Below are positions 15,845 to 47,635 of a DNA stretch of 64,000 bases, piece after piece. The translations under genes were made by a program, and so were the position numbers. Location of the stretch: positions 128,001 through 192,000 of the forward strand of contig CAXXXF010000015.1 in the NCBI GenBank assembly GCA_963667175.2, written 5' to 3'. The notes below the pieces were generated by a model that worked only from the letters and a program-made list of their open reading frames with translations, was not told where the DNA came from and ran no database searches. The stretch's first letter is position 1. The number at the start of each line of letters is the position of its first letter. The stretch is from Candidatus Latescibacterota bacterium. Lineage in GTDB: Bacteria; Latescibacterota; UBA2968; GCA-2709665.

Positions 15845-15877
15845 CCTGTCTGCGAAGTCCCCTGCGTTGCAGGCAGG
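15845..15877. repeat. 33-nt CCTGYCTGC..GCAGGCAGG palindrome inside a partial MITE-B copy (~15815-15900)
   Basis: Flanks match the 47417-47635 element. Confidence 0.75.
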
Positions 15878-16060
15878 CCGATTCATTCCGGCTCGCAGCG
15901 CGGCAAGCGACCCTTCGCCGTAAATTCCATCACGAGTTTGCCGTTGACACGCTCTTTCAATTCCGCTTTCTTTCGGTGGACGTTTCCTCCCCGTTTGGGG
16001 AGTTGCCTCCGCAGCGTCACGGCGTTGCGACCCACGCCGTCTGACGCCGATATCCTTTGT

Positions 16061-16114
16061 GCCTTTTTGTGCGTTTTGTGGCCGATTTCATGGTTTTCTT
16101 TTTTCGAATTGAGG
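16061..16114. repeat. TTTTGTG-type dispersed repeat ending CGAATTGAGG (also 44911-44963 and 46065-46115)
   Basis: Three similar ~53-bp copies, each shortly upstream of a start codon. Confidence 0.75.
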
Positions 16115-16121
16115 CTCCTCA

Positions 16122-16922
16122 ATGGAAAGCGTTCGCGACAGGCTCTGGATCTTCACGTGTGTGGCCGGATCGGACAACGACTCGCTCACTTATGCCGGTT
16201 ACACGCAGGGGTCGCGGATGACGCCGGCCGAAGGCGCGTTATTCCTGGACGTACCCAACCTCCATATGATCCGGTGGCGCGGCCTGCCCGCGTACCCCTA
16301 CGAACAGGTCGCCGTCACGTTCTCCTCGCTCAAGCAGGTCACATGGTCCATCGTGGGCAGCGGCGGACAGGTGGAAGGGGACGAACTGCAACGCGTGCTC
16401 GGTCTGGCCGACACGCATCCCAATATCACCGGCGTCTATCTGGACGACTTCATGCGAAAGGACGGCAGAGGCGCCCTCAGCGTGGATGACCTCGCCGACG
16501 CGCGTCCGAGACTCAACGTTGGCGGCAGAAGGCTGGACCTTTGGGTGGTCCTGTACATCAGGCAACTCCACCTGCCCCTCAAGCCGTACCTCGAACACTG
16601 CGACGTGGTCAATCTCTGGACCTGGAATTCGGATGAACTGGCAGACCTCGAACGGAACTTGGAACGCCTGGAAGCGGTCAACCCCGGCGGTCGCGTCTCC
16701 CTGGGATGTTATCTCTGGGACTACCACAACCGGCGGTCCGTGTCGATCTCGCAGATGGAGCACCAGTGCAACCTGGGTCTCCGGTGGCTCAGGGAAGGCC
16801 GAATCGAGAGCATTGTCTTTCTCGGCAACACCTGCTGCGACGTTGGCATCGAGTCCGCCCCGTGGGCGCAGGCGTGGATCAGGGAGGTGGGCGAAATACC
16901 GCTCGAATCTGTCAAGGCGTGA
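16122..16922 (+). CDS. Hypothetical protein (possible TIM-barrel hydrolase-like)
   Basis: 266-aa ORF, GAGG RBS, host-like codon usage, PNITGVYLDDF motif. Confidence 0.7.
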   Translation: MESVRDRLWIFTCVAGSDNDSLTYAGYTQGSRMTPAEGALFLDVPNLHMIRWRGLPAYPYEQVAVTFSSLKQVTWSIVGSGGQVEGDELQRVLGLADTHPNITGVYLDDFMRKDGRGALSVDDLADARPRLNVGGRRLDLWVVLYIRQLHLPLKPYLEHCDVVNLWTWNSDELADLERNLERLEAVNPGGRVSLGCYLWDYHNRRSVSISQMEHQCNLGLRWLREGRIESIVFLGNTCCDVGIESAPWAQAWIREVGEIPLESVKA

Positions 16923-16952
16923 CCGGGAGCGGGAAACAATCGCCACAAAAAG

Positions 16953-16985
16953 TCTGCCTGCAGCGCAGTACGCTGCGCAGGCAGG
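16953..16985. repeat. 33-nt palindrome inserted in an inverted CACAAAA repeat
   Basis: TCTGCCTGCAGCGCAGTACGCTGCGCAGGCAGG; near-identical to 18459-18491. Confidence 0.8.
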
Positions 16986-17030
16986 CACAAACGGCACAAA
17001 AAGGGCTAAAGCAGTAAGGAGACGACCGAT

Positions 17031-18299
17031 ATGAAGAACCGGGAAGGGATTGGAAACAACCTCGACAAGTGCACCTACGTACCGAGCGACGGCCTGCATG
17101 CGTTTTACGCATCAGGACAGACCTATACGGGCGCGACCGGGGAACGCATCGTTGAAACGGTGACCTCCGAATGCCTTCAGTGGGTGACGCACGACGACGG
17201 ACGCACGACGCTGGACGCCTGTTACGACGGCACCTGGCTCAGGATATCGGAAGACAACGGATCACACTGGACCGACTGGGGACCGAGGGTAAGGTTCGAC
17301 GTCGGGATCGAGGAAGAGCAGCTGATGCCGGCGGGATTCAGCCTGGATACTCAGAGCGACACCCTGGTGCGGTTCTACCGGGGGCAGAAGGCCGATAAGA
17401 GTTGCTACGGATACATCAACCAGGGCGCCTACCGGGCGTATACGAGCGTTTCCGGAGACCAGGGAGCAACCTGGAGCGATCCGGAGCAGATCGTCGCCCG
17501 GGGTGACGGTTTCGACGCGGAACGCTGGGGTCCCGGCTTCGAATACGGCGTCCGCGGCGGAATCCTCAACGGGAACCACTGCATCTGGCTCGAGGACGGG
17601 TCGGTGCTGGCGCCATTTACGGAGTACGAACGACTGGACGGTACCAGACCCTGGCGCTTCCGGGTGGTCTGCGCGAGGGGAAACTGGAAGGACGATATGA
17701 GCGGGCTCGACTGGGAGTTCGGGGACTTTATCGAGGTGCCGCTTGAGAAGTCCCGCATCGGATGCTGCGAGCCCTCGATCACGCCGCTGGAATCGGGTGC
17801 GCTGTTCGTCACGATGAGGTGTCAGGGGAACGAGGCCGAGGGCACTTATACCATACCCTATACCGCCGTTTCGGAGGATGGCGGAATGAGCTGGACGCCG
17901 CCGGCGCCGCTGATCTACGACGACGGTTCGAACGTATGGACGCCCGCCTCGTGTACAGCCTTTTATGATTCCTCCGTGACGGGCAAGACCTACTGGATTG
18001 CCAATATCCTGGACGGCCCGGTCTACGGCCAGATTCCTCGATATCCGCTGAATATTTCCGAATTCGACACGGTCAACGCGTGTATCGTCAAGGACTCTGT
18101 CCGGCTCATTCAGGACCGGCCCGACGACGCGCACGAAAACGTGAGATATACCAACTTCGGGTGGTATGAAGACAGAAGAACGGGTCGGTTGATTATCACG
18201 CTTCCGGAGCAATATCGCCGCATGGGATGGGACGACATGGAGAAGCCCGAGGACTTCGCGGCGGATTGCGTGAAATATACAGTGGATATAGGCGGGTAG
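17031..18299 (+). CDS. Sialidase-family/BNR Asp-box beta-propeller protein
   Basis: Asp-boxes SEDNGSHW, SGDQGATW, SEDGGMSW; AGGAG RBS. Confidence 0.8.
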   Translation: MKNREGIGNNLDKCTYVPSDGLHAFYASGQTYTGATGERIVETVTSECLQWVTHDDGRTTLDACYDGTWLRISEDNGSHWTDWGPRVRFDVGIEEEQLMPAGFSLDTQSDTLVRFYRGQKADKSCYGYINQGAYRAYTSVSGDQGATWSDPEQIVARGDGFDAERWGPGFEYGVRGGILNGNHCIWLEDGSVLAPFTEYERLDGTRPWRFRVVCARGNWKDDMSGLDWEFGDFIEVPLEKSRIGCCEPSITPLESGALFVTMRCQGNEAEGTYTIPYTAVSEDGGMSWTPPAPLIYDDGSNVWTPASCTAFYDSSVTGKTYWIANILDGPVYGQIPRYPLNISEFDTVNACIVKDSVRLIQDRPDDAHENVRYTNFGWYEDRRTGRLIITLPEQYRRMGWDDMEKPEDFAADCVKYTVDIGG

Positions 18300-18458
18300 A
18301 CGTGAGAGGGGAGATAATCAGAAAAACCGCTCACACAAAGACACGAAGACACAAAGAAAAACAACTGCAATCAGCCGACAACTGTCGGCTTGAACCAGAA
18401 ACAGTCGACGTCTGCGCCGCGGCGTGGCATAACCTGATCGGGCGCGTCGAGGGCAGGA

Positions 18459-18491
18459 CCTGCCTGCAGCGCAGTACGCTGCGCAGGCAGG
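18459..18491. repeat. 33-nt CCTGCCTGC..GCAGGCAGG palindrome
   Basis: Seen directly; nested within a GAGGGCA..TGCCCTC stem. Confidence 0.8.
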
Positions 18492-18690
18492 TGCCCTCGC
18501 CGGAAGAGCGAGTAGACTTGAGGCGTGAGAGGTTGTTTGCCCCGTGCGGTTTCATTTCGCGCCGGAGGCACAATGGAAGAACCAATCGGGCAAGGTTGTC
18601 ATCTACCGTCTCCCGTGCTTTCAGGTTTTCCTTCTTCCTTCTTCCTTCTTCCTTCTTCCTTTGAAGTGATGGCTCTACGACAACGCGAAT

Positions 18691-20385
18691 TTACGACTCC
18701 CCGTACCTGGAGATGAGGTCCACAGTGGCCGCATCTCCTTTTTTCTGCGCCCAGGCCAGGGGCGTGGCCCATTCGGCGCCCGCGAGTTTCGGATCGGCGC
18801 CGCGTTCCAGATACAGCTGCGCGAGATCGTACTTGCCCCACCGGGCCGCCCAGCCCAGCGGCGTGGACTGAAGGAGGTCGTCGATCACGTCCAGATCGGC
18901 GCCGTGGTCGAGGAGGATGGTCGCAAAGGCGACGCGCTCCGGCTCGGTCATAATCGGCTCTCCCCAGACGATGCCGCAGGCCGCCAGGTGATGCGCGAGC
19001 CGGTACCCGAAACGCCCCACCAGATTGGGGCTGACGCCGTGGTCCAGAATCATTCGGAAGATCTCCGGATAGACCGAGCGGTCGAAGTCGCGAAACTTGC
19101 GGTGGGGATTCGTCCGCCACAGGCGCAGCGGCTGCTCGAGCAGGCTGAACCAGCGACCGTCATCGGGTTCCCAATCGAGTTGCCGCAGGCACATCCCAAC
19201 GATATTCGGGTCGCCGCCGCATCCCGCGGCCCATAGCAGTTTCTCCGCGATCGACGGATCGTTGTGGAGGGCGACGGCAGCGGCCGACGTCTCAGCTTCG
19301 AGACCGGCAGTGACGTGATCCAGGATCCCGCCGTATCGAAACAGCAGTCCCTTCATCCGGTCGTCCCGGTTGTTGTACGCCGCGCCCACGGGATTGGCGC
19401 TGGCATAGATGCTGGCATTGGGATCGGCGCCGTATTCCAGAAGGAGTTCGGCGATTCCATACCGGGAATTGCCCGCCGCATTGGCCAGGGGTTCGCCCCA
19501 CGAATACGGTTTGGATTCGTAGTGGTGGAGCTGATGCCGGTCGTCCGGGTGCAGACCCAGGTCGAGCAGCAGGCGCACCATGTCGATATCGTCGTTCCGG
19601 ACGGCGATCTGCAACAGGCCGTCCCGCTCGCTGTCGCTGGACTGAAAGCGATCGGGATGTTCCTTCGCGAACGCGCGGACGAAGTCTAGATCGCCAAGTG
19701 CGACCGCGGATTCGATTGATTGCTCGCATCCCGCCTGCAGCAGGATGCCCGCGCAGATCAGACACCCTTCGTTGAGCGGCCTGTTGCGCCCTCGTACATT
19801 GAGGACCGCGCCGTCCAGGGGCGATTGGCCCTCGGGCGTGAGATGGGTGACATCGGCGCCGCGATGGAGCAGTTCGCGAACGAGCCGGTAACGGCCGTGC
19901 GACGCGGCCGCGTGGATCACGCTGCCGCCATTGCGATGGCACGCGTCCAGCAAATCGGGCTGACGATCCAGGACGTCGAGCGCAGCCTGCTCCCGCCCCC
20001 CCCCGACGGCCTCGAACAGCGCGTCGTTCTCGTCGGTTATCGTGATATTCTTGCACGCGGCCAGCTTGCGTTTTTCGTCTTCTTCCCTGATCACGTGGAC
20101 GATTTCGTCCAGGCCGCGCTCCCGCGCCATGGTAAACGCGCCGGTGGCGTCGCGATGGGGATAGATGCCCGAGTTGTGGTCCGCGCCCGCTTCCATGAGA
20201 ACGCGGACCGCATCGATGTGCCGGTTCATTACCGCGTAGTGAATCGCGCGGTGTTCGTTGTTTTCAGCCATGTGCACGTTCACCAGATCGGGCCGCTCGC
20301 CAAGGATCTGTCTGATCCGCGACACATCGCCGCTGCCTGCCGCCTCACATAGATCTGCGACCCTGTAGGATCCGTTGCCGGCCAT
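18691..20385 (-). CDS. Ankyrin-repeat protein
   Basis: Repeats such as AIHYAV..LMEAGAD and TPLGWAARWG..LERGADP; AAAGGAGG RBS before ATG at 20385. Confidence 0.88.
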   Translation of the reverse strand: MAGNGSYRVADLCEAAGSGDVSRIRQILGERPDLVNVHMAENNEHRAIHYAVMNRHIDAVRVLMEAGADHNSGIYPHRDATGAFTMARERGLDEIVHVIREEDEKRKLAACKNITITDENDALFEAVGGGREQAALDVLDRQPDLLDACHRNGGSVIHAAASHGRYRLVRELLHRGADVTHLTPEGQSPLDGAVLNVRGRNRPLNEGCLICAGILLQAGCEQSIESAVALGDLDFVRAFAKEHPDRFQSSDSERDGLLQIAVRNDDIDMVRLLLDLGLHPDDRHQLHHYESKPYSWGEPLANAAGNSRYGIAELLLEYGADPNASIYASANPVGAAYNNRDDRMKGLLFRYGGILDHVTAGLEAETSAAAVALHNDPSIAEKLLWAAGCGGDPNIVGMCLRQLDWEPDDGRWFSLLEQPLRLWRTNPHRKFRDFDRSVYPEIFRMILDHGVSPNLVGRFGYRLAHHLAACGIVWGEPIMTEPERVAFATILLDHGADLDVIDDLLQSTPLGWAARWGKYDLAQLYLERGADPKLAGAEWATPLAWAQKKGDAATVDLISRYGES

Positions 20386-20455
20386 CTCTGTTCCTCCTTT
20401 GACTTGCAATTTATCGTTTTGTAAGGGGATTATATACAAAGATAAACAGGGTGTG

Positions 20456-20671
20456 TTATGGCAATTCAGCCAGAGCAAACACCAGCTCTTCGACAAGCGC
20501 ATTGGCCTGCTCGGCCGTCAATAGACATTGAAACTTCTGCGTTTGTGATCCGCCGTCGGTGCTTTCCGCCTCCAAGCGAAGATAAATGCGACCTGTCCCG
20601 TGATGTACGCCTATCCCAAGCTGAGTGAGGTGAGATAGTCGAATATGACCTGGCTTAGACATCTCGTCCAT
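20456..20671 (-). CDS. Small hypothetical passenger protein
   Basis: 71-aa ORF with GAGGG RBS inside the IS. Confidence 0.5.
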   Translation of the reverse strand: MDEMSKPGHIRLSHLTQLGIGVHHGTGRIYLRLEAESTDGGSQTQKFQCLLTAEQANALVEELVFALAELP

Positions 20672-20777
20672 GATTCCCTCGTTTCTCTTAGATGAGTTAA
20701 CTTCCGCGTTGCGCTTGGCCCCCTATTGCGTTAGATTATAACCGTAGCACATATCAACCACCCTCAAAGGGGGAGAA

Positions 20778-21275
20778 GTGCGGGCTTTGGTCTTTGCGCC
20801 TGTATGAGTGCGCAAGCACAAGAGCCGGACCCCAACGGATTTCAGCAACGCGGATTCATCCTGAATGGTATTGGGGAAAAGTGTTGGTTTACTCAGTCCT
20901 ATTTCAACAACAAGCCTCACTTCTGGAAAAAATCATTCCCGGATGCAGACGACCATGAACTCAGAATTTTAACATTCACTAACCCACGTTGCATGCGAGA
21001 CGACTTGAAAGGATTTGACGCCGATATTTCAAGAATGCTGAATTCTCACATGATCAACGTTAGGCTATCCAATTTCTACACAGGGACCTATGTTATAAAA
21101 GATGCTAATTTCGATACCAGAGAAATAAAGCCACATGGAAAATTCGAAGATCGAGGCCAGTGTATCCAGTCAAAGCAATATCCAAGCAAGGGCATTGCAG
21201 TTGAATAGCATGATCGAGAACAGAGCAATCAAGTCGGTTTACCATACAATGGCTATTCACGGATGTGGTCGATGA
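20778..21275 (+). pseudogene. Probably frameshifted secreted hypothetical passenger gene
   Basis: Core ORF 20804-21208; RBS+GTG at 20778 is out of frame; removing one base in GAATAGCATG extends the frame (VEYMIENRAIKSVYH..GCGR). Confidence 0.4.
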
Positions 21276-21288
21276 AAGGAGGCCTATC

Positions 21289-21447
21289 ATGGCAGTGAAG
21301 AAGGAGAGCCGCGCCAGAGGAAGGCCGGTTACAAAGACGATGCCGGGCAAGATCCCAGACACACCGGAGAATATCGCCAAAGCCATGTTCCGAACCGGAC
21401 CGAAACGGGAGGGTGAATGGCGATATATGAAGAAGAACACGGTGTAA
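21289..21447 (+). CDS. Small basic passenger protein (RGRP..IPDTPENIAKA)
   Basis: Strong AAAGGAGG RBS; 52 aa. Confidence 0.6.
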   Translation: MAVKKESRARGRPVTKTMPGKIPDTPENIAKAMFRTGPKREGEWRYMKKNTV

Positions 21448-21839
21448 AACAAGAGCGAACTCCGCTATGGAGCGTCAAGGCCAGCGATAGGGCGCTGTTT
21501 AATGGGTGTTCGGTATTCATATTCATAATCGTGATTGTTGCCGAAATTGTTACCAGGTGGCCTATATGCTGGCAACCTTTGACGAAAACCGCAAAAGACA
21601 TGATCCAGTTGGCTGCGCTCTCTATGATCGGGGCCTACTTTATCGTGGAGGCAAAGGACATGTTAGGCGGATTCAGGGACTGGGTTAAAGAAAGGAATCT
21701 CAGGATTAGACAGGAGCATTACGAGAGAGGTATACAAGAAAAAAACCGGGAATTCGAAAAGTGGGTTGAATCGGAACGCGAAAAAGGCACGCGTTTTAAC
21801 ACTCCACCTCCAATTGGCAATAACGGAGGCCAAACCTAA
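21417..21839 (+). CDS. Hypothetical membrane passenger protein
   Basis: Two hydrophobic segments, charged C-terminus; GGAGG RBS; convergent overlap with tnp stop. Confidence 0.55.
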   Translation: MAIYEEEHGVKQERTPLWSVKASDRALFNGCSVFIFIIVIVAEIVTRWPICWQPLTKTAKDMIQLAALSMIGAYFIVEAKDMLGGFRDWVKERNLRIRQEHYERGIQEKNREFEKWVESEREKGTRFNTPPPIGNNGGQT

Positions 21840-22774
21840 TCCACCAAATCCCGATACCTCAAACTCTTTCCAACCATACCGGCCACAATCCGTCCCATCT
21901 GCTCAACGGTATCCAGTTCACGGACGTTGTGCCTGCCAACGAATTCGTTGACGTATCTTTGCAGGTGCTGAACGCCCATCTTGTGGTATGTGCCATAGAT
22001 GCCGCGTTTGAACATCGACCAAAACGAATTGATACCGTTCGTGTGAACGTTGTAGTGGACGTATTCGCCGGATGAATGCTTGACAGTGCGATGCCTCATG
22101 CCCGTCATTCCCTGATAGGCTGAGGCATCGTCTGTGTACACGTCCGCGCCTTTGCTGGCGTGGCGCTCAACAAAGCCTTTGAGCGCAGGCCCGTAAATCG
22201 CCTCAGTCACTTCAGCGTCCCTGTCGTCTGTTTCGCGGTCACGAGCGCCGACCACTGCCGTCTTGCCCACTGTGCCCCTGCCTGCGTTCAGCTTGTCCTT
22301 TGCATGCTTATTTCGTTCCTTTCCGCCAACAAACGTTTCGTCTATTTCGACCGGCCCGGCAAACATTCCTCTATCCTCTGCCCACGCCTCGCGGATTCTG
22401 TGGGCCATGTGCCAGGCTGTTTTCTGCGTCACGCCTATATCCCTGTGCAGTTTCATGCTGAACGTACCTTTGAGACCGGTTGACATCAGGTAAATGGCAA
22501 TCGCCCACTTGCGATAACCGATCTTCGAGGATTCCATCAGTGAACCGGTTTTCGTAGAAAAGAACTTGCGGCAATCCTTGCAATGGAAGGGCATGCGGGG
22601 GTGACCGCCGTTGCGCTTGACGCGGTCGCTGTCACAGCGCGCACAACGCACGCCTTCCGGCCACCTTTGGGCAATGAACCATTGTTCGGCGACATCATCC
22701 GTTGGGAACAGGTCGAACAACTGAACCAGCGTGATACCCTCTCTGTGCGATTTTCCTGGTGCTTCGTGTGCCAT
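21836..22774 (-). CDS. IS1595-family transposase
   Basis: Zn ribbon CARC..CKDC, HTH (VTQKTAW), VEIDETFVGG, VYTDD, HTNGINSFWSMFKR. Confidence 0.93.
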   Translation of the reverse strand: MAHEAPGKSHREGITLVQLFDLFPTDDVAEQWFIAQRWPEGVRCARCDSDRVKRNGGHPRMPFHCKDCRKFFSTKTGSLMESSKIGYRKWAIAIYLMSTGLKGTFSMKLHRDIGVTQKTAWHMAHRIREAWAEDRGMFAGPVEIDETFVGGKERNKHAKDKLNAGRGTVGKTAVVGARDRETDDRDAEVTEAIYGPALKGFVERHASKGADVYTDDASAYQGMTGMRHRTVKHSSGEYVHYNVHTNGINSFWSMFKRGIYGTYHKMGVQHLQRYVNEFVGRHNVRELDTVEQMGRIVAGMVGKSLRYRDLVD

Positions 22775-22937
22775 GACAACCTCCTGTATTTCAATCGTTT
22801 ACTAATTACAGAAGAAAAGTAAACGAAAAGTGGCGGTTGTCACGGAAAAAACGTCTACTTTCGTATATAATCCCCTTTTGTAAACGTCCGCGGGCAACCA
22901 CCTGCGGTCGCCGCATAAAGACCTGCCCGGCTGAGAC

Positions 22938-23495
22938 TCACAACCCGTATTCCAGCGTGAGTTCCCTCTTCACGTCCGTTTTCTCGACGCTTTCCCTGAT
23001 GTCATCCATCATTGCCAGCCACCTGTGTTCTCTGAATTTCTCAAAGTCGAGGACGAATCCCGGGAGCGCCCTGCTCTCGATCCGGCCGGCCGGCTCCTGC
23101 CCGAGCACCTCGAACTTCCCGCCTCGAAGCTGGTACCACGTGGCCGGTTTGCCGTTCTCCACGAACAACGCCTCCTGGACGCCGGATGCTTCATAAATCT
23201 GGCGCTTCTTTCCCAGATCCGTAAATCCGTGCTTGGATTCGATTTCAAGCACGAAATTGGGCGGCCCCTCGTAGACCTGATGATCGTGGTTCTTCCTGCA
23301 GATCTGCCGGGGTCCGTTTCTTCGCACGATAACGCCCACGCTCGGATAGACCATAACATCCGTCTTGCCGGCGTAGCTGAGCCGTACCGGCGGGAAGAGG
23401 ACCACGTCCATACCTGTAGCAATCATGCGGTAGTAATTGATCACGGTAAGCACGTCCGTGTGGTGTCGCGATACATTCGCGTCGGGTATCCACAT
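22938..23495 (-). CDS. Uma2 (DUF820) family endonuclease-like protein
   Basis: GPPNFVLEIES..DLGKKRQIYEASGVQE; IESRALPGF. Confidence 0.8.
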   Translation of the reverse strand: MWIPDANVSRHHTDVLTVINYYRMIATGMDVVLFPPVRLSYAGKTDVMVYPSVGVIVRRNGPRQICRKNHDHQVYEGPPNFVLEIESKHGFTDLGKKRQIYEASGVQEALFVENGKPATWYQLRGGKFEVLGQEPAGRIESRALPGFVLDFEKFREHRWLAMMDDIRESVEKTDVKRELTLEYGL

Positions 23496-23507
23496 GACAA
23501 ACCTCCT

Positions 23508-34531: not shown

Positions 34532-34550
34532 TCCATCCTCCCGTGTCTAA

Positions 34551-34729
34551 CAGCCCGTTGAAAAAGCCCATCCGGGCTACGTCCGGCCCTTGTGGCCGAA
34601 TAACTGCGTTGCCTGCCTGCGGCAGGCAGGCGCTCCCTCCCCGAATCCAGGGATTCGCGTCGGTCGCGCGCCTTGTCTTCGGCCACAATGACTCGGCCTC
34701 GCCTGCAGAGCGACTTTTTCAACGGACTG
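34551..34729. mobile_element. MITE family A (179 bp)
   Basis: TIRs CAGCCCGTTGAAAAA / TTTTTCAACGGACTG; flanked both sides by CTAA; inverted copy at 45867-46059. Confidence 0.85.
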
Positions 34730-35042
34730 CTAAGAGACACGTCCTTAAACGTTACAAGGTCGTTTCCACATCAGTAACTCCGGCTTGGGACTTTGTCCGA
34801 ATCCGTATGAGCAGGAGAGCGGAACTTTCCCGCGCCGCGGCGGGCTTCAGTCTGCCGGGATCGGCATCGTGCCATCCTCCGCTTTCTCCGCAGGGCGTCT
34901 GCTGCAGCAACGGCAGGGCTGTCGCCTGAGGCGTCGGCATGGCGCCAATATGTCGTCAGATCGGGTTCAGGTCATGCACGCAGGCGGCTGCCCATGCCAG
35001 GTACGGGGTGCGTTAAATAAGCTCTTATACAGGAGAAAATCG

Positions 35043-38842: not shown

Positions 38843-38897
38843 GCACTTTTTATATTCAGGCTTTATCTTTCAGGGACAGAAAATCGTAACGAATACG
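38841..38897 (+). promoter_or_regulatory. Sigma70 promoter with candidate Zur-like box
   Basis: TTGCAC-17-TATCTT, then AAATCGTAACGAATACG resembling AAATCGTAATNATTACG. Confidence 0.4.
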
Positions 38898-38977
38898 TGG
38901 CAGATGATGGCAACGTGTGCCCGTGGGGATAGCGAGTAAAGGGAAGACGAACAGACACGACAAGGAAGGTTTCTCAG

Positions 38978-39916: not shown

Positions 39917-39952
39917 TTGAGAAATTGGTATCCGTTTGCATGTAACCGGCGC

Positions 39953-40411
39953 TTACCCGTCCACAACCTCATAGGCGCCCGAATTGTACATATTCTCCCG
40001 GGTCTCCACCCGGTATACCCAGCAACGTCCATCGGTCGTCCCGCGGATCATCCGGTCGGCATAGTCGAACGCGAATTTGGAGGATGCCTCCATCCCGACG
40101 TTCGGCATCACGCGCAGGTCCACAATTCCCCTCCGGTGCATTTCCTCGAACAGCTCGCGCTCCGGGTCGTCTTCGTTGATCAGCATCGTGTGGTCGAACA
40201 TGTGCTCCAACCAGGCCTTCAGATCCTTGAGTTTGCCGAAATCCACCACAAAGTGATTCTCGTCCAGCTCGTTGCACGTAAAGTGGAACGTTATGACGCG
40301 GTTGTAGCCGTGGATGAACTGGCAGTGCCCGTCGTGATGCGCCTGTCGGTGCGAACACGGCAGATTGTGAAATGTCTTGGTGGACGAAAACCGCCCTTTT
40401 CCCCTGGCCAT
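39953..40411 (-). CDS. queD: 6-carboxytetrahydropterin synthase (QueD/PTPS family)
   Basis: CSHRQ..GHCQFIHGY, VVDFG, FDHTMLIN. Confidence 0.8.
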   Translation of the reverse strand: MARGKGRFSSTKTFHNLPCSHRQAHHDGHCQFIHGYNRVITFHFTCNELDENHFVVDFGKLKDLKAWLEHMFDHTMLINEDDPERELFEEMHRRGIVDLRVMPNVGMEASSKFAFDYADRMIRGTTDGRCWVYRVETRENMYNSGAYEVVDG

Positions 40412-40517
40412 AGACCCGTCCCGCATCGAAGTCAGACTTGGGTGAACACCCTAGAAAATATCGATTTCGCCCACTCTGTCAAGGTTTCCGCACCTGAAGA
40501 CCGAAAGGAACGCGCCG

Positions 40518-41360
40518 ATGATCATTGACACCCACACCCACTTCTACAATCCCGGCCGACCGGAAGGGGTGCCGTGGCCGCCGCAGGACGACACCCTGCT
40601 CTACCGCCGCGTGCTTCCTGAAAACTACAAGGCCGTTGCGGTTCCGGAGGGCGTGACCGGCGCCGTGGTCGTGGAGGCCAGCGAGTGGTTCGAAGACAAT
40701 CGCTGGATCCTCGACCTGGCCGAAAAAGAGCCGTTCATCGTAGGCTTTGTCGGCAATCTCGACCCGGACGCCGACGCCTTTCAGGACCGGCTTGCAAGCC
40801 TGGCGGACAACCCGCTTTTCCGGGGCATACGCCTTCACAGAAACGAGGTCCGGACCGTTGGCGGTCCGCTGTTTTCCAAACTCGAGTTGCTGGTTCGGCA
40901 CGACCTTTCCCTCGACCTCCTCATCGACGTCGAGCAGCTTCATTCCGCCGTCCGAATTGCCGAGCGGCTGCCGGACCTGCGCATTGTGCTCAATCACGTC
41001 ATCCACGTACCCATCGACGGCAAGACGCCGGACCCCGAGTGGATCGACGGCCTGCACAATATCGCGCAGTTCCCGAACGTCTACTGCAAGGTGTCCGGCC
41101 TCGTCGAAACCGCCCGACAACGACCCGCTCCTCCCGAGTTGAACTATTATGCGCCGACGCTGGACCACCTCTGGGAGATTCTCGGCGTGGACCGACTCAT
41201 CTACGCCAGCAACTGGCCCGTGTGCGAACACGGCGCCGACTACGCGACTGTGCAGCGCGTCCCCATGGAGTATTTCAGAGCCATTGGTGAAGAAGCGGTC
41301 GAAAGGGTATTCTGGAAGAACGCAAAAGCGGCTTACAGGTGGCCCGATCGCAAGCATTAG
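40518..41360 (+). CDS. Amidohydrolase family protein
   Basis: IIDTHTHF, VLNHV, CKVSGLV, YASNWPV. Confidence 0.88.
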   Translation: MIIDTHTHFYNPGRPEGVPWPPQDDTLLYRRVLPENYKAVAVPEGVTGAVVVEASEWFEDNRWILDLAEKEPFIVGFVGNLDPDADAFQDRLASLADNPLFRGIRLHRNEVRTVGGPLFSKLELLVRHDLSLDLLIDVEQLHSAVRIAERLPDLRIVLNHVIHVPIDGKTPDPEWIDGLHNIAQFPNVYCKVSGLVETARQRPAPPELNYYAPTLDHLWEILGVDRLIYASNWPVCEHGADYATVQRVPMEYFRAIGEEAVERVFWKNAKAAYRWPDRKH

Positions 41361-41462
41361 CAAATCACGAGGCGACGGGAACGCGCCGCGCGGACGGTCC
41401 TGCCGGGGACCGGATCTTTCGTCAGGGCTCTATTGTTCGTCCGGCCGGTTCGCGGACAGACG

Positions 41463-41819
41463 TTAACGTCGCCGGGTGAGCATGGGCCCGAGCGGACGTC
41501 CTCCAAGCAGATGCATATGCAGGTGGTAGACCTCCTGGCCGCCGTGGTCCCGGCAATTCACGATCAACCGGTATCCGTCATCGGAAAACCCTTCCTGTTC
41601 CGCGAGCCGGGCCGCCACGGTAAACAACCGGCCAAGCGCGGCCTCATCTTTGGACGATACATCGCTGACGGTGGGTATCACCTTGTTTGGAACAATCAGA
41701 ATGTGAGTCGGCGCCTGCGGATTGATATCTCGAAACGCCGTCACCAGCTCATCCTGATACGTGATTTCAGACGGTATCTCCTTCCGTATGATCTTGCTGA
41801 AGATGGTCTCGTCCGCCAT
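41463..41819 (-). CDS. hinT: HIT family nucleotide hydrolase (HinT)
   Basis: [33 protein letters not shown]. Confidence 0.9.
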
Positions 41820-41952
41820 GAATTCTCCTTTCGGCAATCACCTCCATTTGCTATCTTCCGTGGCCAACGCTGAACAAAAAAACAACGCGCAAACCACAAA
41901 TCAAGGAATTCTTTAACCCGAGTAGCTGTTGTCCCGGAGAGAAGGCGGGAAC

Positions 41953-42216
41953 ATGCTTCCTATCCTCGATCGACTCCTGGCCGCATTTGCGACAATCCTT
42001 CTGCGGTTCTACCGGTTATTTGTCTCTCCTTTTTTACATTTCGTTTTCGGTCCCGGCAGCGGGTGCCGGTTTTATCCCACGTGCTCCCGGTACGCGCGTG
42101 ATTGCTTTCGGCAACATTCCGTTCCTGTCGCCCTGTTTCTGTCGGTCTCGCGAGTGCTGAAATGTCATCCCTTTCACCCGGGGGGATTTGATCCCGTCCC
42201 GCCGAAGCGCCAATAG
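41953..42216 (+). CDS. yidD: Membrane protein insertion efficiency factor YidD
   Basis: CRFYPTCSRYA..RVLKCHPFHPGGFDPVP. Confidence 0.9.
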   Translation: MLPILDRLLAAFATILLRFYRLFVSPFLHFVFGPGSGCRFYPTCSRYARDCFRQHSVPVALFLSVSRVLKCHPFHPGGFDPVPPKRQ

Positions 42217-42468
42217 ACGCGACACCCGTCAACGCCGGGCGCCCTGCCCTCCGAAGCAAGACCATCGACGGCTTCGGGACCACCCTGGCGATGCCCGGCT
42301 TTGGCCCGCGTGTCCGTTCAGACCTCCCCGTACCTTCGCTTGCTGCGGCCAGCGAGGCATTTCCCCCGCCTTTCGATACGGCGCCCCTCATCTGAGCGCC
42401 GGAGGGCCTTCAACCTTCCTGACCCGGACGCTGTCCAGCTCACACTTCCCACCCCCTCCGCCACCCTC

Positions 42469-42498
42469 TTGACTTGATATCGAAAAATCATTATCGTT
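42469..42498 (+). promoter_or_regulatory. Sigma70 promoter overlapped by Fur/Zur-family box
   Basis: TTGACT-17-TATCGT, overlapped by GAAAAATCATTATCG. Confidence 0.5.
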
Positions 42499-43019
42499 AA
42501 TTTCGTGAGGGTCGCGTCCTCTTTCCGCTCCTGCCGTGAGCGCGACGCCATCGACATCATTCGCGGACCACCCCCACGTCACGGATCGGTTGGTCGATCA
42601 CGACGGCGACGCGATTCCACTCGACGACGGCTGGGTGGGGTCAGCCGGTCGAAGCAGGTCCTCCAGTCCTCCCCGGAGATGCCCGGGTTTTCCCGCCACT
42701 TGATCGTGATTGTCTCGCAATCCTCGCATGCCGGAATCCGTCACGGCCCAACGGCAAGAAACGCAGATCGTGCGGACGTTTGTTGTATAAGTGGAGTTCT
42801 CACGCACGGCACAACCTTCATCTTTCCCGTAATAATGAACCGGGTAAAGTCCCGGTTTTACCGATCGTGTGGAGTGCGTCTCGCTCTACACGTCGGAACC
42901 GGAGACAGGTGTATACGGCGGGAGCGACGTCCGAAGTCCCTCCGCGCAAGCATTCCGGGGCGTGCGCCGCCATCCGGACCTATACTTGGTCCCGCTGTTT
43001 CACAGGGAGAAGAGAGAGC

Positions 43020-43328
43020 ATGTTGATCAACACGTCACTACGCCGCCCGAACCTCGAACGGGTACGACGCATCAAGGAGGCATTGCGCGAAGCGCTAGGA
43101 CTCTCCCCTGACGCGACGGTCACGGTCACCGAGCTGGCTTGTCTCGAAGAAGGCTGCGCCCCCGTCGAAACCGTGATCGGCCTGCTTCGGCCCGATGCGC
43201 CACAGCTTCAGCATAAGTTACACAAACCCATAGACGCCGTTGACGCCAGGGACCTGATCCAGGTCTGCAAGGCGTGGGGGTTCGACGTCCGAATTTCAAT
43301 ACTCGCACATCGGCTCCGGGAGAACTAG
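43020..43328 (+). CDS. Small conserved protein (ELACxExGCxPxET) typical upstream of COG0523 genes
   Basis: VTVTELACLEEGCAPVETVI motif; abuts cobW-like gene. Confidence 0.7.
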   Translation: MLINTSLRRPNLERVRRIKEALREALGLSPDATVTVTELACLEEGCAPVETVIGLLRPDAPQLQHKLHKPIDAVDARDLIQVCKAWGFDVRISILAHRLREN

Positions 43329-43592
43329 ATGAACACGCCGCGAAAAGTGCCTGTTTCCATCCTCACCGGCTTCCTCGGCTCTGGCAAGACGACCCTGCTC
43401 AACCGGATCTTGAGTGAGGAGCACGGCAAGCGCATTGCCGTGATCGAGAACGAGTACTGCGAGGTCGGCATCGATCAGGCGCTCGTCATCGACGCTGACG
43501 AAGAGACCTTCGAGCGCAATCAGCTCGTCTTCAACGGCCGCTACCTCGATGAGCAGAGCATGCGGCGGGGGTTCGAAGCATGTCTGATGTGA
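43329..43592 (+). pseudogene. COG0523/CobW GTPase with large in-frame internal deletion
   Basis: N-terminal TGFLGSGKTT..IAVIENE..GID joined directly to C-terminal NQLVFNGRYLD..GFEACL; only 87 aa. Confidence 0.8.
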
Positions 43593-44623
43593 ACGTCGAC
43601 AGACCCAGGGGCGTTCTTCGCCGGGGTTGGTCTGCAGCGGTCGGCGACTATGCCATCGCCGGGGGTTGGAGCCTGCGCGGTGAGGCGCTGATGGTCGGTG
43701 ACGCTGCGGGTGGCGTCTACGCCTTCGACGGCAAGTCCGGCGCGACCGCCTGGGCACGGCGGGAGGTTCATGACGGTGGTGTGCTCGCAATGGCGATCCA
43801 CCCAGGCGGAACCGCGTTCGCGACGGCCGGCCAGGACAGCCGAATCTTAATCTGGACCGCCGCCGAAGGTCAGGTAAGCCGGGCTATCGACGTCGGAAGC
43901 GGCTGGGTAGAAAACGCGGCGTGGTCGCCGGACGGCCAGTGGTTGGCGGCATCCTGCTCCCGGGAGGTCCGCGTATATGACGCCGACGGCGTGGAAGTTT
44001 GGCGATCTGATGATCATCCCAGCACCGTCAGCGCGATTGCCTGGTCGAGCTCAGGGGAGCTGGCGACGGCCTGTTACGGTCGAGTGACGTTCTTCGACGC
44101 GGCCACCGGCGAGCCACGCCAGAAGCTGGAGTGGCAGGGCTCCCTGGTGTCGATGGTCCTGAGTTCGGACGGCGATATCGTGGCCTGCGGCAGCCAGGAC
44201 AACTCGGTGCACTTCTGGCGTCGCTCCACGGAGGAGGACTCCATGATGTCGGGATATCCTGCCAAGCCGTCGGCACTGGCTTTCGACGACACCGGCGCCC
44301 TCCTAGCCACCGGGGGAGGGGAGGCGGTGACGGTCTGGAGCTTCCACGGAAGTGGTCCCGAAGGCACGCGGCCCGGCGTTTTAGAGCTTCATGTTCAGCC
44401 CGTCACGACGCTTGCCTTCGATCGCCGCTCGATGCGCCTGGCATCCGGAGGCCGTGACCGTGCCGTGGTCGTGTGGTCGCTTCAGAGAGATGGAGAAGGC
44501 GGTCCGATAGGGGTCGCGGTTGTGGAGGGCGCAGTGGCCGAATTGTACTGGCGGCCAGACGGCCGCGCGCTTGCCGCGCTCGACGCGCGGGGTGGCGTGA
44601 CGGTTTGGCGGACTCGATCTTGA
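43580..44623 (+). CDS. WD40-repeat protein
   Basis: ATAGQDSRILIW, AWSPDG, CGSQDNSVHFW, ASGGRDRAVVVW. Confidence 0.88.
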   Translation: MSDVNVDRPRGVLRRGWSAAVGDYAIAGGWSLRGEALMVGDAAGGVYAFDGKSGATAWARREVHDGGVLAMAIHPGGTAFATAGQDSRILIWTAAEGQVSRAIDVGSGWVENAAWSPDGQWLAASCSREVRVYDADGVEVWRSDDHPSTVSAIAWSSSGELATACYGRVTFFDAATGEPRQKLEWQGSLVSMVLSSDGDIVACGSQDNSVHFWRRSTEEDSMMSGYPAKPSALAFDDTGALLATGGGEAVTVWSFHGSGPEGTRPGVLELHVQPVTTLAFDRRSMRLASGGRDRAVVVWSLQRDGEGGPIGVAVVEGAVAELYWRPDGRALAALDARGGVTVWRTRS

Positions 44624-44688
44624 CGCTCAAGGGCACGGGACTTTCGCCGCCGACCGAACGCCTCTCTCTTTTCAACCAAAAATAGTAC

Positions 44689-44716
44689 TTGCCCATGAGA
44701 AAAAGTATCATATGAT
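44689..44716 (+). promoter_or_regulatory. Candidate promoter with 7-1-7 Fur-family box
   Basis: TTGCCC-16-TATGAT; spacer holds TGAGAAA-A-AGTATCA. Confidence 0.45.
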
Positions 44717-44720
44717 TCTG

Positions 44721-44878
44721 GTGTTCTGTCCCGATAATAAGTTGCCTGAATTCGGCCGTCGAGACGAGATGAATCGGCCGAAGAATGGTGAGGGAGCGCC
44801 TGCCTGCCGCAGGCAGGCAACGCCGTATTTCGGTCACAAGGGCCGGACGTAGCCCGGATGGACTTTATCAACGGGCTG
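44721..44878. mobile_element. Chimeric MITE: partial family B (inverted) joined to right part of family A
   Basis: 44721-44794 matches the reverse complement of parts of 47417-47635; 44790-44878 matches 45958-46059. Confidence 0.7.
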
Positions 44879-44979
44879 TTATGGTAGGGTATCTCTGAAT
44901 CGTCACTTGCGCCTTTTGTGCTTTTTGTGGCCAATTTGACGGTTATCTCTTTTCGAATTGAGGCTATTCGGAGACTGCG

Positions 44980-45642
44980 ATGTCACTTTTGACAGTCACG
45001 AACCTCGTAAAGGCTTACGCTTCGCCTGAAGGTTCACAGAGCCGCATCATTGATGTTCCCCATTTTGAGATAGACGCAGGAAAACAGATTGCGCTCAGAG
45101 GGAGCAGCGGCGCTGGAAAAACGACGTTTCTGAATCTGATCGCTGGAATTCTACAAGCCGACGACGGATGCATTGTGCTCGCCGGCGTGGAGACGACCGC
45201 TCTCTCAGAATCCGAGCGGGACAGGCTGCGTGCCCACCACATCGGGTATATTTTCCAAACATTCAATCTACTTGCCGGCTACACAGCTTTAGAGAACGTT
45301 ATGCTCGGAATGATGTTCGGAAAAGGAATTGAAGCCAATTTTGCCCAACATCTGCTTGAACGGGTCGGACTTGGCGATCGAATGCAGTATCGCCCTTCGC
45401 AGCTATCGGTCGGGCAGCAACAACGTGTTGCGGTTGCCCGCGCCGTAGCCAATCGACCCCGTCTCGTACTCGCCGATGAACCGACCGGCAATCTGGATTC
45501 TCATCATGCCAGCGAAGCGGTGACACTTATCCGCGATATTTGCTGCGAAAACAGTGCATCGCTGCTTATCGTCAGCCACGACTCAAGCGTTCTGGGCCAG
45601 TTTGAGGAGGCAAAGGATTTCGCGCAAGTAAATCGCGTATAA
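44980..45642 (+). CDS. ABC transporter ATP-binding protein (LolD/ZrgB-like)
   Basis: GSSGAGKTT, LSVGQQQRVAVARA, LADEPTGNLD. Confidence 0.92.
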   Translation: MSLLTVTNLVKAYASPEGSQSRIIDVPHFEIDAGKQIALRGSSGAGKTTFLNLIAGILQADDGCIVLAGVETTALSESERDRLRAHHIGYIFQTFNLLAGYTALENVMLGMMFGKGIEANFAQHLLERVGLGDRMQYRPSQLSVGQQQRVAVARAVANRPRLVLADEPTGNLDSHHASEAVTLIRDICCENSASLLIVSHDSSVLGQFEEAKDFAQVNRV

Positions 45643-45866
45643 CGTAACTCATTCACGAAAATTCCACGTTTTCTTGAATGATTGGACGATCTCTACGCCC
45701 CGTTTCGGAAGATTTCTCCGCGGTGTCGACGTTCCGGATTTTTCGATGGAAGGCAAATTGCCGCAAGAGGCACAGAAACAGCGAATCTGTTACAGGGCGT
45801 TTCGCCGAGAGACAAGGAATACCTTGTAGGGTCACGGCGTTACGACACACGCCGTTTGGTGTCTAA

Positions 45867-46059
45867 CAGTCCGTTGAAAAAGTCGCTCTGCAGGCGAGGC
45901 CGAGTCATTGTGGCCGAAGACAAGGCGCGCGACCGACGCGAATCCCTGGATTCGGGGAGGGAGCGCCTGCCTGCCGCGCTTCGCTTGGCGCAGGCAGGCA
46001 ACGCCGTATTTCGGTCACAAGGGCCGGACGTAGCCCGGATGGACTTTATCAACGGGCTG
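45867..46059. mobile_element. MITE family A (193 bp, inverted)
   Basis: TIRs and CTAA flanks; 14 bp longer than the 34551 copy within the palindrome loop. Confidence 0.85.
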
Positions 46060-46135
46060 CTAACCCTTTTGTGCTTTTTGTGGCCAATTTAGCGGTTATC
46101 TCTTTCGAATTGAGGTTAATGGGGATCGGAGAAAC

Positions 46136-47416
46136 GTGTTTGAGTCGAAAATGAAGAGACGGATTGGGTTGTTTTTCATCGTTCAACGCAGTCTTCGACA
46201 ACACGCGCTTTCGACCCTCATCACAACGTTGTCAATTGCGCTCGGCACGGGGCTTGTGATGGCGGTTATCGCCATCAGAACGCAATCCGTCTCGGCATTC
46301 ACGGGCGGTCCGATTGGCTTTGACGCGGTCTTGGGAGCACGCGGCAGTCCGTTACAATTGGTGCTGAACACCGTATTTCATCTCGAAACCTCGCCGGGGA
46401 ATATCCCCTGGACGATGTATCAGGCGGTGAAAGACGATCCGCGTGTCGAGCTCGCCATTCCTTACGCGCTTGGAGACAATTATTATGGTTTCCGTATTGT
46501 CGGTACGGCAGTGGAGTTGTTCACGGAGTTTGAATACCGCAAAGGGGTTCGATTTCGGACGCATGGGGATGGACGTTTTTTCGATCCCAACCGGCAGGAA
46601 GCCGTCCTTGGCAGCTACGTCGCGCAGAAGTTGAACTTAAGGGTGGGGGATACGTTTCATCCGTATCACGGCCTGGTGTTCGATGAATCCATGCGGCATG
46701 ATGAACGATATGTTATTGTTGGTGTGCTCGAAGCGACCAATTCACCGTCCGACCGTGTCATCTGGATACCAATCGAGGGCGTTTATCGACTGGAGGGGCA
46801 TGTGTTGCGGGGCGGTGGTGAAGACTATGTTGCCCAACCCGGTCGAGAGATCCCCGACGTCCACAAAGAGGTCAGCGCAGTCATGCTGAAGTTTCGCAAT
46901 CCGCAGATCGGTTTCATGATGGATGCAATGATCAACAAACAGGGGAAGGCGGCAACGTTGGCATGGCCCATCGGAGCTGTGATGGCTGGCCTGTTTGACA
47001 AAATCGGTTGGATGAAACAAATCCTGGCACTCGTCTCTTATCTGGTTGTCCTTGTTGCGTCGGGTTCAATTCTCGCAAGCATCTACAACTCCATCAACGA
47101 GCGGCGGCGCGAATTTGCCATCTTGAGATCACTTGGCGCACGTCGTAAGACGGTGTTTACGGTAATTGTGCTGGAAGCTGCATCGATCGCGGCGTTAGGA
47201 GTCATCATAGGATTTATAGTTTACGGTGCGATTTTCACCTCAGCATCAGCAATTGTCCGCACCCAGACGGGTATCGTCTTGGACCTGTTGGAATTTCATC
47301 TCGCGTTCGTACTCGTGCCGGTTTGCGTCGTACTTCTGGGTGTGATCTCTGGCATTGTGCCCGCCTTCAAGGCGTATCAGACGGACGTCGCAACGAGTTT
47401 AACACCCATAGGCTAA
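46136..47416 (+). CDS. ABC transporter permease (FtsX/MacB type, ZrgC-like)
   Basis: DAVLGARGSPLQLVLNTVFH, LGDNYYGFRIVGT, NERRREFAILRSLGA. Confidence 0.88.
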   Translation: MFESKMKRRIGLFFIVQRSLRQHALSTLITTLSIALGTGLVMAVIAIRTQSVSAFTGGPIGFDAVLGARGSPLQLVLNTVFHLETSPGNIPWTMYQAVKDDPRVELAIPYALGDNYYGFRIVGTAVELFTEFEYRKGVRFRTHGDGRFFDPNRQEAVLGSYVAQKLNLRVGDTFHPYHGLVFDESMRHDERYVIVGVLEATNSPSDRVIWIPIEGVYRLEGHVLRGGGEDYVAQPGREIPDVHKEVSAVMLKFRNPQIGFMMDAMINKQGKAATLAWPIGAVMAGLFDKIGWMKQILALVSYLVVLVASGSILASIYNSINERRREFAILRSLGARRKTVFTVIVLEAASIAALGVIIGFIVYGAIFTSASAIVRTQTGIVLDLLEFHLAFVLVPVCVVLLGVISGIVPAFKAYQTDVATSLTPIG

Positions 47417-47635
47417 TTCCCCGTCCCAAAAAATCCTCGCCATTCTTCCGCCTGCCTGCGCAGTGCCCTGCGCTGCAGGCAGGCAGATTCATCCCGTCTC
47501 GCTGCGTTCCGCCTCGCTCGCCGACCCTACGCAGGGCGCCTGCGATCAGGCGCTGGGACCTGAGCCTGTCCAGGGATGCGAGCCGGGCTACTCTGCGGCC
47601 GAATTCAGGCGGATTATTTCCCGGACGGAACACTG
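47417..47635. mobile_element. MITE family B containing a 33-nt palindrome (47451-47483)
   Basis: Imperfect TIR (CCGTCCCAAAAAATCC / GGATTATTTCCCGGACGG); CTAA on both flanks. Confidence 0.65.

Follow-up and report, generated by a model that had tools for sequence, protein, structure and literature searches.

Precise, duplication-free and nested insertion of gene-less 19–36-nt hairpin units in a Candidatus Latescibacterota genome

Seven short hairpins lie in a 64,000-nucleotide stretch of the genome of a Candidatus Latescibacterota bacterium, referred to here as the window (C15:128001-192000; genome label G000, 5.52 Mb in 18 contigs, ~59.5% G+C). Near-identical DNA occurs in runs labelled sponge metagenomes. 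The hairpins belong to a large family of units with fixed ends, which are inserted precisely, without duplication of the target, into other repeats and into one another. The target is symmetric around a G^C step (^ marks the junction), the bloom of the family is lineage-specific, and its spread is partly hitch-hiking. We consider it probable that the hairpins are a gene-less mobile family, inserted precisely and moved in trans by a nuclease or recombinase into a flush break. An earlier note on this DNA had proposed an ultra-small mobile unit that is moved in trans and that gained a further 14 nt in a second insertion step; as a whole, that interpretation is partly supported. There is no enzyme gene within the unit, and any mobilization must therefore be in trans, as the note had supposed. 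Here, we describe the sites at which units are present or absent, the structure, target and distribution of the units, and the candidates for their mobilization.

Units are present or absent at otherwise identical sites

To find empty sites, the 30–35 nt flanks of each unit were searched separately, and places where both flanks abut were recorded. Candidate empty places were obtained for 117 of 292 blocks. Clustering reduced the blocks to 114 distinct sites, of which 24 have exact empty copies, at 251 empty places in total. Neither a target-site duplication nor a loss of bases is seen at any of these 24 sites. Together with one orthologous empty site (see below), these exact paralogous empty sites uphold the view that a very small unit inserts. 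The same host site can be filled by different unit types in different repeat copies: among the 35 sites with at least two filled copies, 24 hold clearly different types, which is hard to explain by descent alone. The site cttctg^cgactcc, with 12 filled copies in six forms and 23 empty copies, is one example.

The host with the most complete record is a miniature inverted-repeat transposable element (MITE), MITE-A. Its empty reference copy is 169 bp long (C11:46058-46226), 83 copies are full-length, and insertion sites lie at reference positions 32, 64 and 100. Each of the three sites can be empty (E) or filled (F), and seven of the eight combinations occur among 61 clean copies (EEE 23, EFE 18, FFE 8, EFF 6, FFF 3, EEF 2, FEF 1); the unit is thus not an invariant part of one MITE lineage. 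Genome-wide, site 64 holds a 19-nt unit in 42 copies and a 33-nt unit in three, and is empty in 25, in agreement with the earlier report that MITE-A carries either form. In a second host, MITE-B, the apparent empty site reported near 44770-44785 proved real. It is one base off the usual empty form (..GAATCGG^CGGAAGAA..); 13 copies of the MITE-B site are empty and nine are filled genome-wide.

Units also interrupt larger elements. An insertion sequence (IS)-like element of ~1.8 kb is empty at two sites in 12 copies, and one further copy carries inserts of 30 and 54 nt, both inside a 552-aa reading frame; the filled copy is 95–97% identical to the others and is the most diverged. The copies comprise C4:188349-190147 of this genome and 12 others (e.g., C11:38576-40286); the family of the open reading frame (ORF) is unnamed, and 30 and 54 are multiples of three. 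Lastly, the site of the unit at window position 16953 has an orthologous empty junction (..ACAAAAAG^CACA..) in the sister species G012, G006, G002 and G001. Orthology was assessed at 13 loci, of which six were anchored and seven could not be anchored; the remaining two anchored loci also lack the unit and have a diverged spacer.

An alternative is that the units have long been fixed components of a small number of repeat lineages, and that empty sites reflect precise loss, by slippage or cruciform processing, together with gene conversion, with no insertion mechanism at all. Several observations favor it or otherwise weigh against a mobile family. In MITE-A, site and unit type correspond almost one to one (28 nt at position 32, 30 nt at position 100 and 19 nt at position 64), and the 28-nt unit occupies the same MITE-A site in the other species G002 and G006; inheritance plus loss, or gene conversion, fits this match as well as repeated insertion does. 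On a tree of the MITE-A backbone, which is weak because 169 nt offer little resolution, filled and empty copies cluster no more than they do when the labels are shuffled, with 203, 72 and 22 of 300 shuffles requiring no more changes than observed. Deletions are clearly promoted by units, and much of the copy number is hitch-hiking, the 292 blocks lying at just 114 sites, 79 of them single. An orthologous empty site was obtained for one unit only (16953), and the host repeats of the units at 15845 and 18459 are wholly absent from the orthologous loci of sister species. Nor is current activity seen in the run contigs: the unit at 16953 is present in contigs of all four runs, and those of runs X2, X3 and X4 run into the unit with no joint skipping it, although rare alleles are invisible in contigs.

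Nonetheless, we judge this alternative unlikely. Precise loss requires flanking direct repeats, and just one base is shared. The IS-like element has one filled copy against 12 empty ones, the filled copy being the most diverged, and the site at 16953 is empty in four species. One and the same site can hold different unit types in both orientations, and whole units lie inside units. Finally, the same core recurs in phages and other phyla, where its surroundings are unrelated.

The units form discrete length classes and nest within one another

The units were catalogued by their 7-nt arm cores, allowing the common C/T and G/A variants, with the same pattern reversed as a control. This yielded 352 units genome-wide versus 24 in the control, whose lengths are flat. 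By contrast with that control, the lengths of the units are discrete: 19 nt (51 units), 20 nt (16), 21 nt (11), 27 nt (20), 28 nt (32), 30 nt (37), 31 nt (10), 33 nt (83) and 36 nt (15). The expectation of a discrete rather than continuous distribution was therefore correct, and the classes are more numerous than the 19- and 33-nt forms first noticed. Exact arms number 572 in the genome. They form 197 exact-arm hairpins with loops of 1 nt (48), 2 nt (16), 15 nt (75) and 18 nt (14), with smaller classes at 13, 40 and 45 nt.

Units start with CCTG(C/T)CTGC and end with GCAG(G/A)CAGG. The 19-nt class reads CCTGCCTGC-N-GCAGGCAGG, and the 20-nt class has CG at its center. The 28- and 30-nt classes have the arms CCTGTCTGC...ACAGGCAGG; the further main classes are those of 33 and 36 nt. 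Composites of 40–63 nt are nested insertions, in which whole units, not bare 14-mers, have entered at G^C within other units. For example, a 30-nt unit lies between CTCGG and CGCAGG of a 33-nt unit, and a 33-nt unit lies within the loop of a 30-nt unit.

The earlier note had derived the 33-nt form from the 19-nt form through a separate, mobile insert of 14 nt. MITE-A site 64 does hold one form or the other, and a 33-mer from which 14 nt are removed is a 19-mer with an observed central base. The inner segments do not behave as a family of their own: the inner 13-mers of 33-nt forms lie between arms in 103 of 117 genome matches, and the other 14 matches are single and scattered. The 33-nt form thus represents a single element and does not consist of a 19-mer and a mobile 14-mer. 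Moreover, the inner segment is armless and departs from the G^C rule, and the 33-nt forms differ by substitutions and compensatory pairs, like a diverging lineage. We regard a two-step origin as very improbable. The 19–20-nt form is a separate form, present in other phyla as well.

Target sequence, junctions and deletions

The junction is G^C at 65 of the 114 sites and purine-pyrimidine (R^Y) at 87. Of the verified-empty sites, 18 have a G^C junction, three have G^T, and A^C, G^G and A^T are found at one each. The target logo is symmetric, S-S-G^C-S-S (S, G or C), with A or T almost never found at −2 and +2, such that both sides are constrained. The data could in principle be read as a 2-bp duplication of GC; this reading is incompatible with the verified G^T, G^G, A^T and A^C sites, so that the terminal C and G must be part of the unit itself. 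Because the S-S-G^C-S-S context is preferred, one more pair is usually added to the hairpin by the G and C on either side. Insertion at the tip of an existing hairpin (flank stem of at least 6 bp) is found at six of 114 sites, versus 1.0% of control SG^CS sites. Hairpin-tip targeting is enriched, yet it is confined to this minority of sites and was rejected as a general rule.

Units also mark deletion junctions. In some MITE-A copies, the sequence from one insertion site to another is missing and a single unit, sometimes chimeric, takes its place; chimeric units are also found at a deletion junction within a copy of an IS630-type gene. As directly follows from the sequences at these junctions, pairs of units recombine, deleting the intervening DNA. 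In two copies of an IS630-type transposase gene (C2:117842 and C16:486971), a unit is located at the same codon position; the C2 copy is truncated at the unit, having lost the DNA beyond it.

The inner stem is conserved by compensatory changes

To assess structure, 24 units of 33 nt were picked by hand from 12 genomes and aligned. The nine outer pairs scarcely vary. Of the inner pairs, 10-22 is CG in 14 rows and AU in nine, and 12-20 is CG in eight rows, AU in five and unpaired in 10. The covariation score is 0.124 versus 0.056 in shuffles, a value that none of 500 shuffles reached. The inner stem is thus kept by compensatory changes, and it is therefore probably the folded hairpin or cruciform that a mobilizing protein sees.

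The two strands do not differ in this respect. G.T pairs (35) and A.C pairs (21) give no strand asymmetry, and folding energies are equal; the idea of a single functional strand was rejected. Consequently, nothing points to a single-strand intermediate; we count this, too, as a point against movement of the units.

The family has bloomed in one lineage, and its core occurs in distant phyla and phages

Exact-arm units number 165 in this genome and between 0 and 105 across a further 14 species of the genus. Counts of 109 and 99 were obtained for two more genera of the family, and four further family genomes have none. Such a patchy distribution is typical of mobile DNA. In a survey of 168 genomes of the phylum, at least six copies are found only in this family (f1), with the exception of one genome of the sister family (f2) with eight; ten other genomes of the phylum have one or two copies, and the reversed control gave none throughout. 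The dominant 33-nt subtype differs between genomes.

A cross-phylum scan, with one genome per species, returned at least 122 stretches, of which 80 loci were read. Among the matches listed, most are single, exact copies of a 20-mer or 19-mer, with unrelated and often A+T-rich flanks; the hosts include Patescibacteria, Bacteroidota (among them named isolates), Omnitrophota, Planctomycetota, Gammaproteobacteria and a Bdellovibrionales genome of 28% G+C. By a rough estimate, chance would give ~0.5 occurrences of the exact 20-mer in 596 Gb. Viral contigs contributed 57 stretches. One contig of 29.5 kb has six copies, and another (L197, 11883 nt), which encodes a terminase and an SU10-type portal, has 19 related palindromic units of 17–33 nt, some of them adjacent or overlapping. 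In five unit-rich phage contigs (84 ORFs), Pfam recognized structural and packaging proteins only (terminase, portal, capsid) and no nuclease or recombinase.

In some of these foreign loci, the core palindrome adjoins a gene for a small GIY-YIG nuclease. In five small records from other phyla or phage, three of 17 core copies lie within 150 nt of such a gene. A WWE3 genome (L207, 425600-427200) and a phage contig (L208, 1-1600) share a common order: a partial tRNA-gene copy (first 33–34 nt), with its D-arm interrupted by the exact 20-mer; next, a GIY-YIG ORF of 79–96 aa; and finally a repeat of that tRNA start, which is intact in the WWE3 genome. At two other WWE3 loci (L210 and L211), the 20-mer interrupts short duplicates, from the 5' end of tRNA-Ile and the 3' end of tRNA-Ala, that lie beside the intact genes, with no nuclease gene between. 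A tRNA motif beside the core was detected at six of 137 foreign loci among the matches listed versus four of 134 control windows, using a crude pattern that missed known cases. In the phage contig L208, the downstream tRNA is seemingly interrupted by ~500 nt with an HNH-type ORF.

It is possible, though we put this forward only tentatively, that the 19–20-nt form CCTGCCTGC(N1-2)GCAGGCAGG is a pan-bacterial, phage-borne mobile element, one of the smallest known, that travels between phyla with tRNA-homing GIY-YIG cassettes and inserts by a novel reaction that is flush and leaves no duplication; in one sponge-associated Latescibacterota family, it would have escaped, diversified into 28–36-nt forms and bloomed to >300 copies. 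The same loci bear on another explanation, namely that the units are filler captured at double-strand breaks. Under this explanation, a nuclease makes flush breaks into which small hairpin or duplex DNA, present in abundance, is ligated, and the target reflects where that nuclease (e.g., a restriction enzyme or homing GIY-YIG enzyme) prefers to cut. The flush, symmetric R^Y junctions without duplication and the presence of units at deletion junctions would agree with it, as would the 20-mer that splits redundant tRNA fragments, a possible cut site, beside a homing-type GIY-YIG gene in other phyla. On the other hand, no source of free units is known, and the 24 verified sites have lost no bases, an unusual outcome if ends had simply been joined. 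We think filler capture improbable; it overlaps with insertion of a mobile family, the sole difference being what makes the break.

A proposed mechanism and the search for a mobilizing enzyme

Units of 19–36 nt with CCTGCCTGC...GCAGGCAGG arms enter whole between two target bases, with a strong preference for a purine-pyrimidine step in a G+C-rich, symmetric context. They land in MITEs, IS copies, spacers and other units, and they owe much of their present number to the multiplication of the host repeats. We propose that a structure- or sequence-specific nuclease or recombinase, probably recognizing the folded hairpin or cruciform, cuts at the foot of the extruded hairpin, and that the cut unit is joined into a flush break. 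Such a reaction would explain both the absent duplication and the two-sided target. The small GIY-YIG nuclease, whose gene adjoins the 20-nt core in bacteria of candidate phyla and in a phage, and thus only outside the Latescibacterota family, is the one candidate with a direct physical link to the units; it may act from phage, or it may have been lost here.

The search for the enzyme adds to the evidence against mobility. No enzyme was identified, and none of the families tested tracks the number of units in the Latescibacterota family. The earlier note had named RAYT/TnpA, GIY-YIG and recombinase genes as ones that might co-occur with the motif; none tracks units in this family, and only GIY-YIG retains a connection, through its position beside the core in some other phyla. 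Small GIY-YIG genes are absent from three unit-rich genomes (G009, 105 units; G015, 109; G011, 71) and present in five with no units (G004, G017, G018, G020 and G021). This genome has one small GIY-YIG gene (C3:540593-540880), which lies more than 1.5 kb from any unit and is flanked by different, 31-nt inverted repeats. Genomes of the family thus give the candidate no support, and with a single gene, other flanking repeats and no phyletic match, it was rejected as the mobilizer there. Even among the foreign and phage loci, a GIY-YIG gene is found at only three of 137 among the matches listed, within flanks of 200–300 nt. The locus of the gene in this genome is of some interest in itself: it encodes 95 aa, spans C3:540512-540972 including the 31-nt inverted repeats, each of which holds a hairpin TTCCGGC-GGAA-GCCGGAA, and looks like a cassette of its own kind.

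Four other sources of mobility were considered, the first three of them across the 22 family genomes, and rejected. PDDEXK_2 nucleases occur in none of the 22. A serine recombinase, as in an IS607-like model, occurs in two, G017 and G020, both without units. A reverse transcriptase, as required for an RNA intermediate, occurs in 11, but not in G015 (109 units), G006, G012 or G001. A parent IS with the same ends is not apparent, there being no long, arm-bounded element among 166 solo arms.

The remaining candidate is a Y1 (HUH) transposase. Repetitive extragenic palindromic (REP) sequences have a conserved head, a tetranucleotide such as GTAG, 5' of an imperfect palindrome, and it could be that the units are REP-type elements, or REP doublets forming hairpins (REPINs), which a REP-associated tyrosine transposase (RAYT) moves on single-stranded hairpins. 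This genome has three Y1_Tnp matches of RAYT-like length (201–210 aa), all five genomes with at least 71 units carry at least two Y1 matches, and target duplication is absent, as in IS200/IS605. One Y1 gene (C7:62896-63498) has units ~235 nt and ~420 nt away, on either side. However, those units belong to ordinary copies of another MITE, the twin copy of the gene has no units nearby, and the third gene (C3:192478-193107) has no unit within 2 kb, only one solo arm ~2.3 kb off. Moreover, Y1 matches are found in genomes without units (two in G004, 32 in G017 and 75 in G038), and genomes with units can lack them (G006, 30 units; G012, 14 units). The units have no GTAG-type head and are single hairpins, not doublets; their target is two-sided and symmetric, not a one-sided 4–5 nt, and strand asymmetry was not found. 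Because no Y1 gene is framed by units of its own and the phyletic patterns disagree, Y1/RAYT was rejected as the mobilizer, and we rate a REP-type origin as distinctly unlikely. Y1_Tnp matches also occur in unusually large open frames of 1200–1441 aa in G007, G009, G011 and G016; this genome has no such frame.

Comparison with known systems

The small dispersed repeats (SDR1-8) of Nostoc and related cyanobacteria were reportedly described by Elhai et al. in 2008 (Genome Res 18:1484), with an RNA intermediate favored. By this account, they resemble the units closely: they are gene-less, ~20–30 nt long, and lie inside MITEs, other short repeats and their own copies; they share a hairpin with compensatory changes, are patchy among relatives, and have no known mobilizing enzyme. 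The units, for their part, are gene-less, <40 nt long, and present or absent at otherwise identical sites; they nest in themselves and in MITEs, and their structure is compensatory. Compared by description only, they differ from SDRs in sequence and phylum, and in having fixed 9-nt arms, a G^C target and several length classes. The RNA intermediate said to be favored for SDRs is also hard to carry over, given a genome with 109 units and no reverse-transcriptase match. The passages on SDRs in PMC5861425, which like those in PMC3116915 cite the work of Elhai et al., report them only from Nostocaceae, whereas the 19–20-nt core of the units is unchanged in many phyla and phages.

Other systems share fewer traits. 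As the relevant passages of Bertels and Rainey (2011, PMC3116915) describe them, REP/REPIN elements are short extragenic palindromes in hundreds of copies, without target duplication and mobilized in trans; these traits are shared by the units, which differ in head, organization, target and relation to Y1 genes, as set out above. Derivatives of IS200/IS605, such as palindrome-associated transposable elements (PATE), likewise lack target duplication, but have a one-sided 4–5 nt target and a hairpin near each end, unlike the single hairpin and two-sided target here. The mobile GC clusters and other palindromic hairpin elements of fungal mitochondria are said to be G+C-rich hairpins of 30–40 nt that are strain-variable, nesting and non-coding, with no enzyme known; by the same description, they are organellar, insert into A+T-rich DNA, and often have short flanking repeats. 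MITEs derived from DDE-type elements share with the units a non-autonomous nature, inverted terminal repeats and high copy number, but the units have no target duplication, no parent element with the same arms among 166 solo arms, and a size 5–10 times smaller. The units work like SDRs, and lack the defining features of REP/RAYT elements, IS200/IS605 derivatives and DDE-type MITEs. In the literature, we found no paper that contains the four 19/20-mers or describes bacterial elements of such a kind.

The hairpin unit seems to be among the smallest mobile DNA elements. If units move, they set a lower size limit for mobile DNA, with ~19 bases carrying all information for recognition, excision or copying, and insertion. 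The clean site pairs, the G^C target and the lack of duplication fit none of the well-studied chemistries tested (Y1, serine recombinase, reverse transcription), which suggests either a novel reaction or a nuclease put to a new use. Because the core is identical in distant phyla and in phages, the question can be tested, and the GIY-YIG cassettes supply concrete proteins. Units also matter to their hosts: they reshape promoters and gene ends (e.g., the unit at 16953 lies 45 nt upstream of the start codon of a BNR-repeat gene, 17031-18299), interrupt insertion sequences, give rise to deletions from one copy to another, and split short-read assemblies where they sit.

Hairpins and host repeats in the window

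The seven hairpins of the window are listed in Table 1 with their hosts. The window holds 14 occurrences of the exact 9-mer arm versus 0.49 expected, a number that none of 100 shuffles reached; two of the 14 are solo arms (12696 and 22277). Positions, lengths (five of 33 nt and two of 19 nt) and hosts, by direct reading of the sequence, are as first reported, with a correction to the left arms at 15845 and 16953, each of which has one mismatch. The five 33-mers were said to have differing loops; all are indeed 33 nt long, but the loops at 16953 and 18459 are identical, leaving four. Apart from its first base, the whole unit at 18459 equals that at 16953. Its host site, with a flank stem of 8 bp, is elsewhere filled by units of 20, 33 and 63 nt. 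The unit type at 45966 recurs at site 64 of two other MITE-A copies (C13:186751 and C12:239617).

Table 1. Hairpin units, MITE-A copies and the empty MITE-B site of the window
Feature	Position in window	Strand	Description
33-nt unit	15845-15877		Left arm CCTGTCTGC (one mismatch); host TTCTTCCt^CCGATTC repeat (MITE-B)
33-nt unit	16953-16985		Left arm TCTGCCTGC (one mismatch); host CACAAAA spacer
33-nt unit	18459-18491		At tip of host hairpin GAGGGCAgga^TGCCCTC (18449-18499)
MITE-A copy	34548-34732 (C15:162548-162732)	+	Filled at reference position 64 only; 32 and 100 empty
19-nt unit	34612-34630		CCTGCCTGC-G-GCAGGCAGG; at MITE-A site 64
Empty MITE-B insertion site	44771-44785	-	TTCTTCGG^CCGATTC on the minus strand; junction between 44777 and 44778
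19-nt unit	44799-44817		At site 64 of a truncated MITE-A abutting the MITE-B piece
MITE-A copy	45864-46063 (C15:173864-174063)	-	Site 64 holds a 33-nt unit in place of the usual 19-nt unit
33-nt unit	45966-45998		Inner part CGCGCTTCGCTTGGC; at MITE-A site 64
33-nt unit	47451-47483		Inner part GCAGTGCCCTGCGCT; MITE-B site TTCTTCCG^CAGATTC

A 102-nt stretch between CCTGCCT and AGGCAGG (50328-50429) also matched the catalogue pattern and is probably a chance pair, not a unit. A scan of the window against Rfam gave no RNA family at gathering scores. Runs of a CACAAA(A/G)-type repeat lie directly upstream of start codons in the window (16901-17030 and 16040-16110) and in orthologous spacers of sister species; they may be a promoter or leader feature of the genus. 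Intergenic spacers change fast in this genus: orthologues of two window spacers (18300-18690 and 15683-16121, compared with loci L127-L139) range from 44 to 838 nt and hold different MITEs in each species. Outside the window, at C15:369088-370810, there is a tandem array with a period of ~250 bp, in each repeat of which a 20-nt unit lies inside a CCCCTCTCC...GGAGAGGGG hairpin; a wider cluster of sites with this hairpin extends over C15:356-404 kb.

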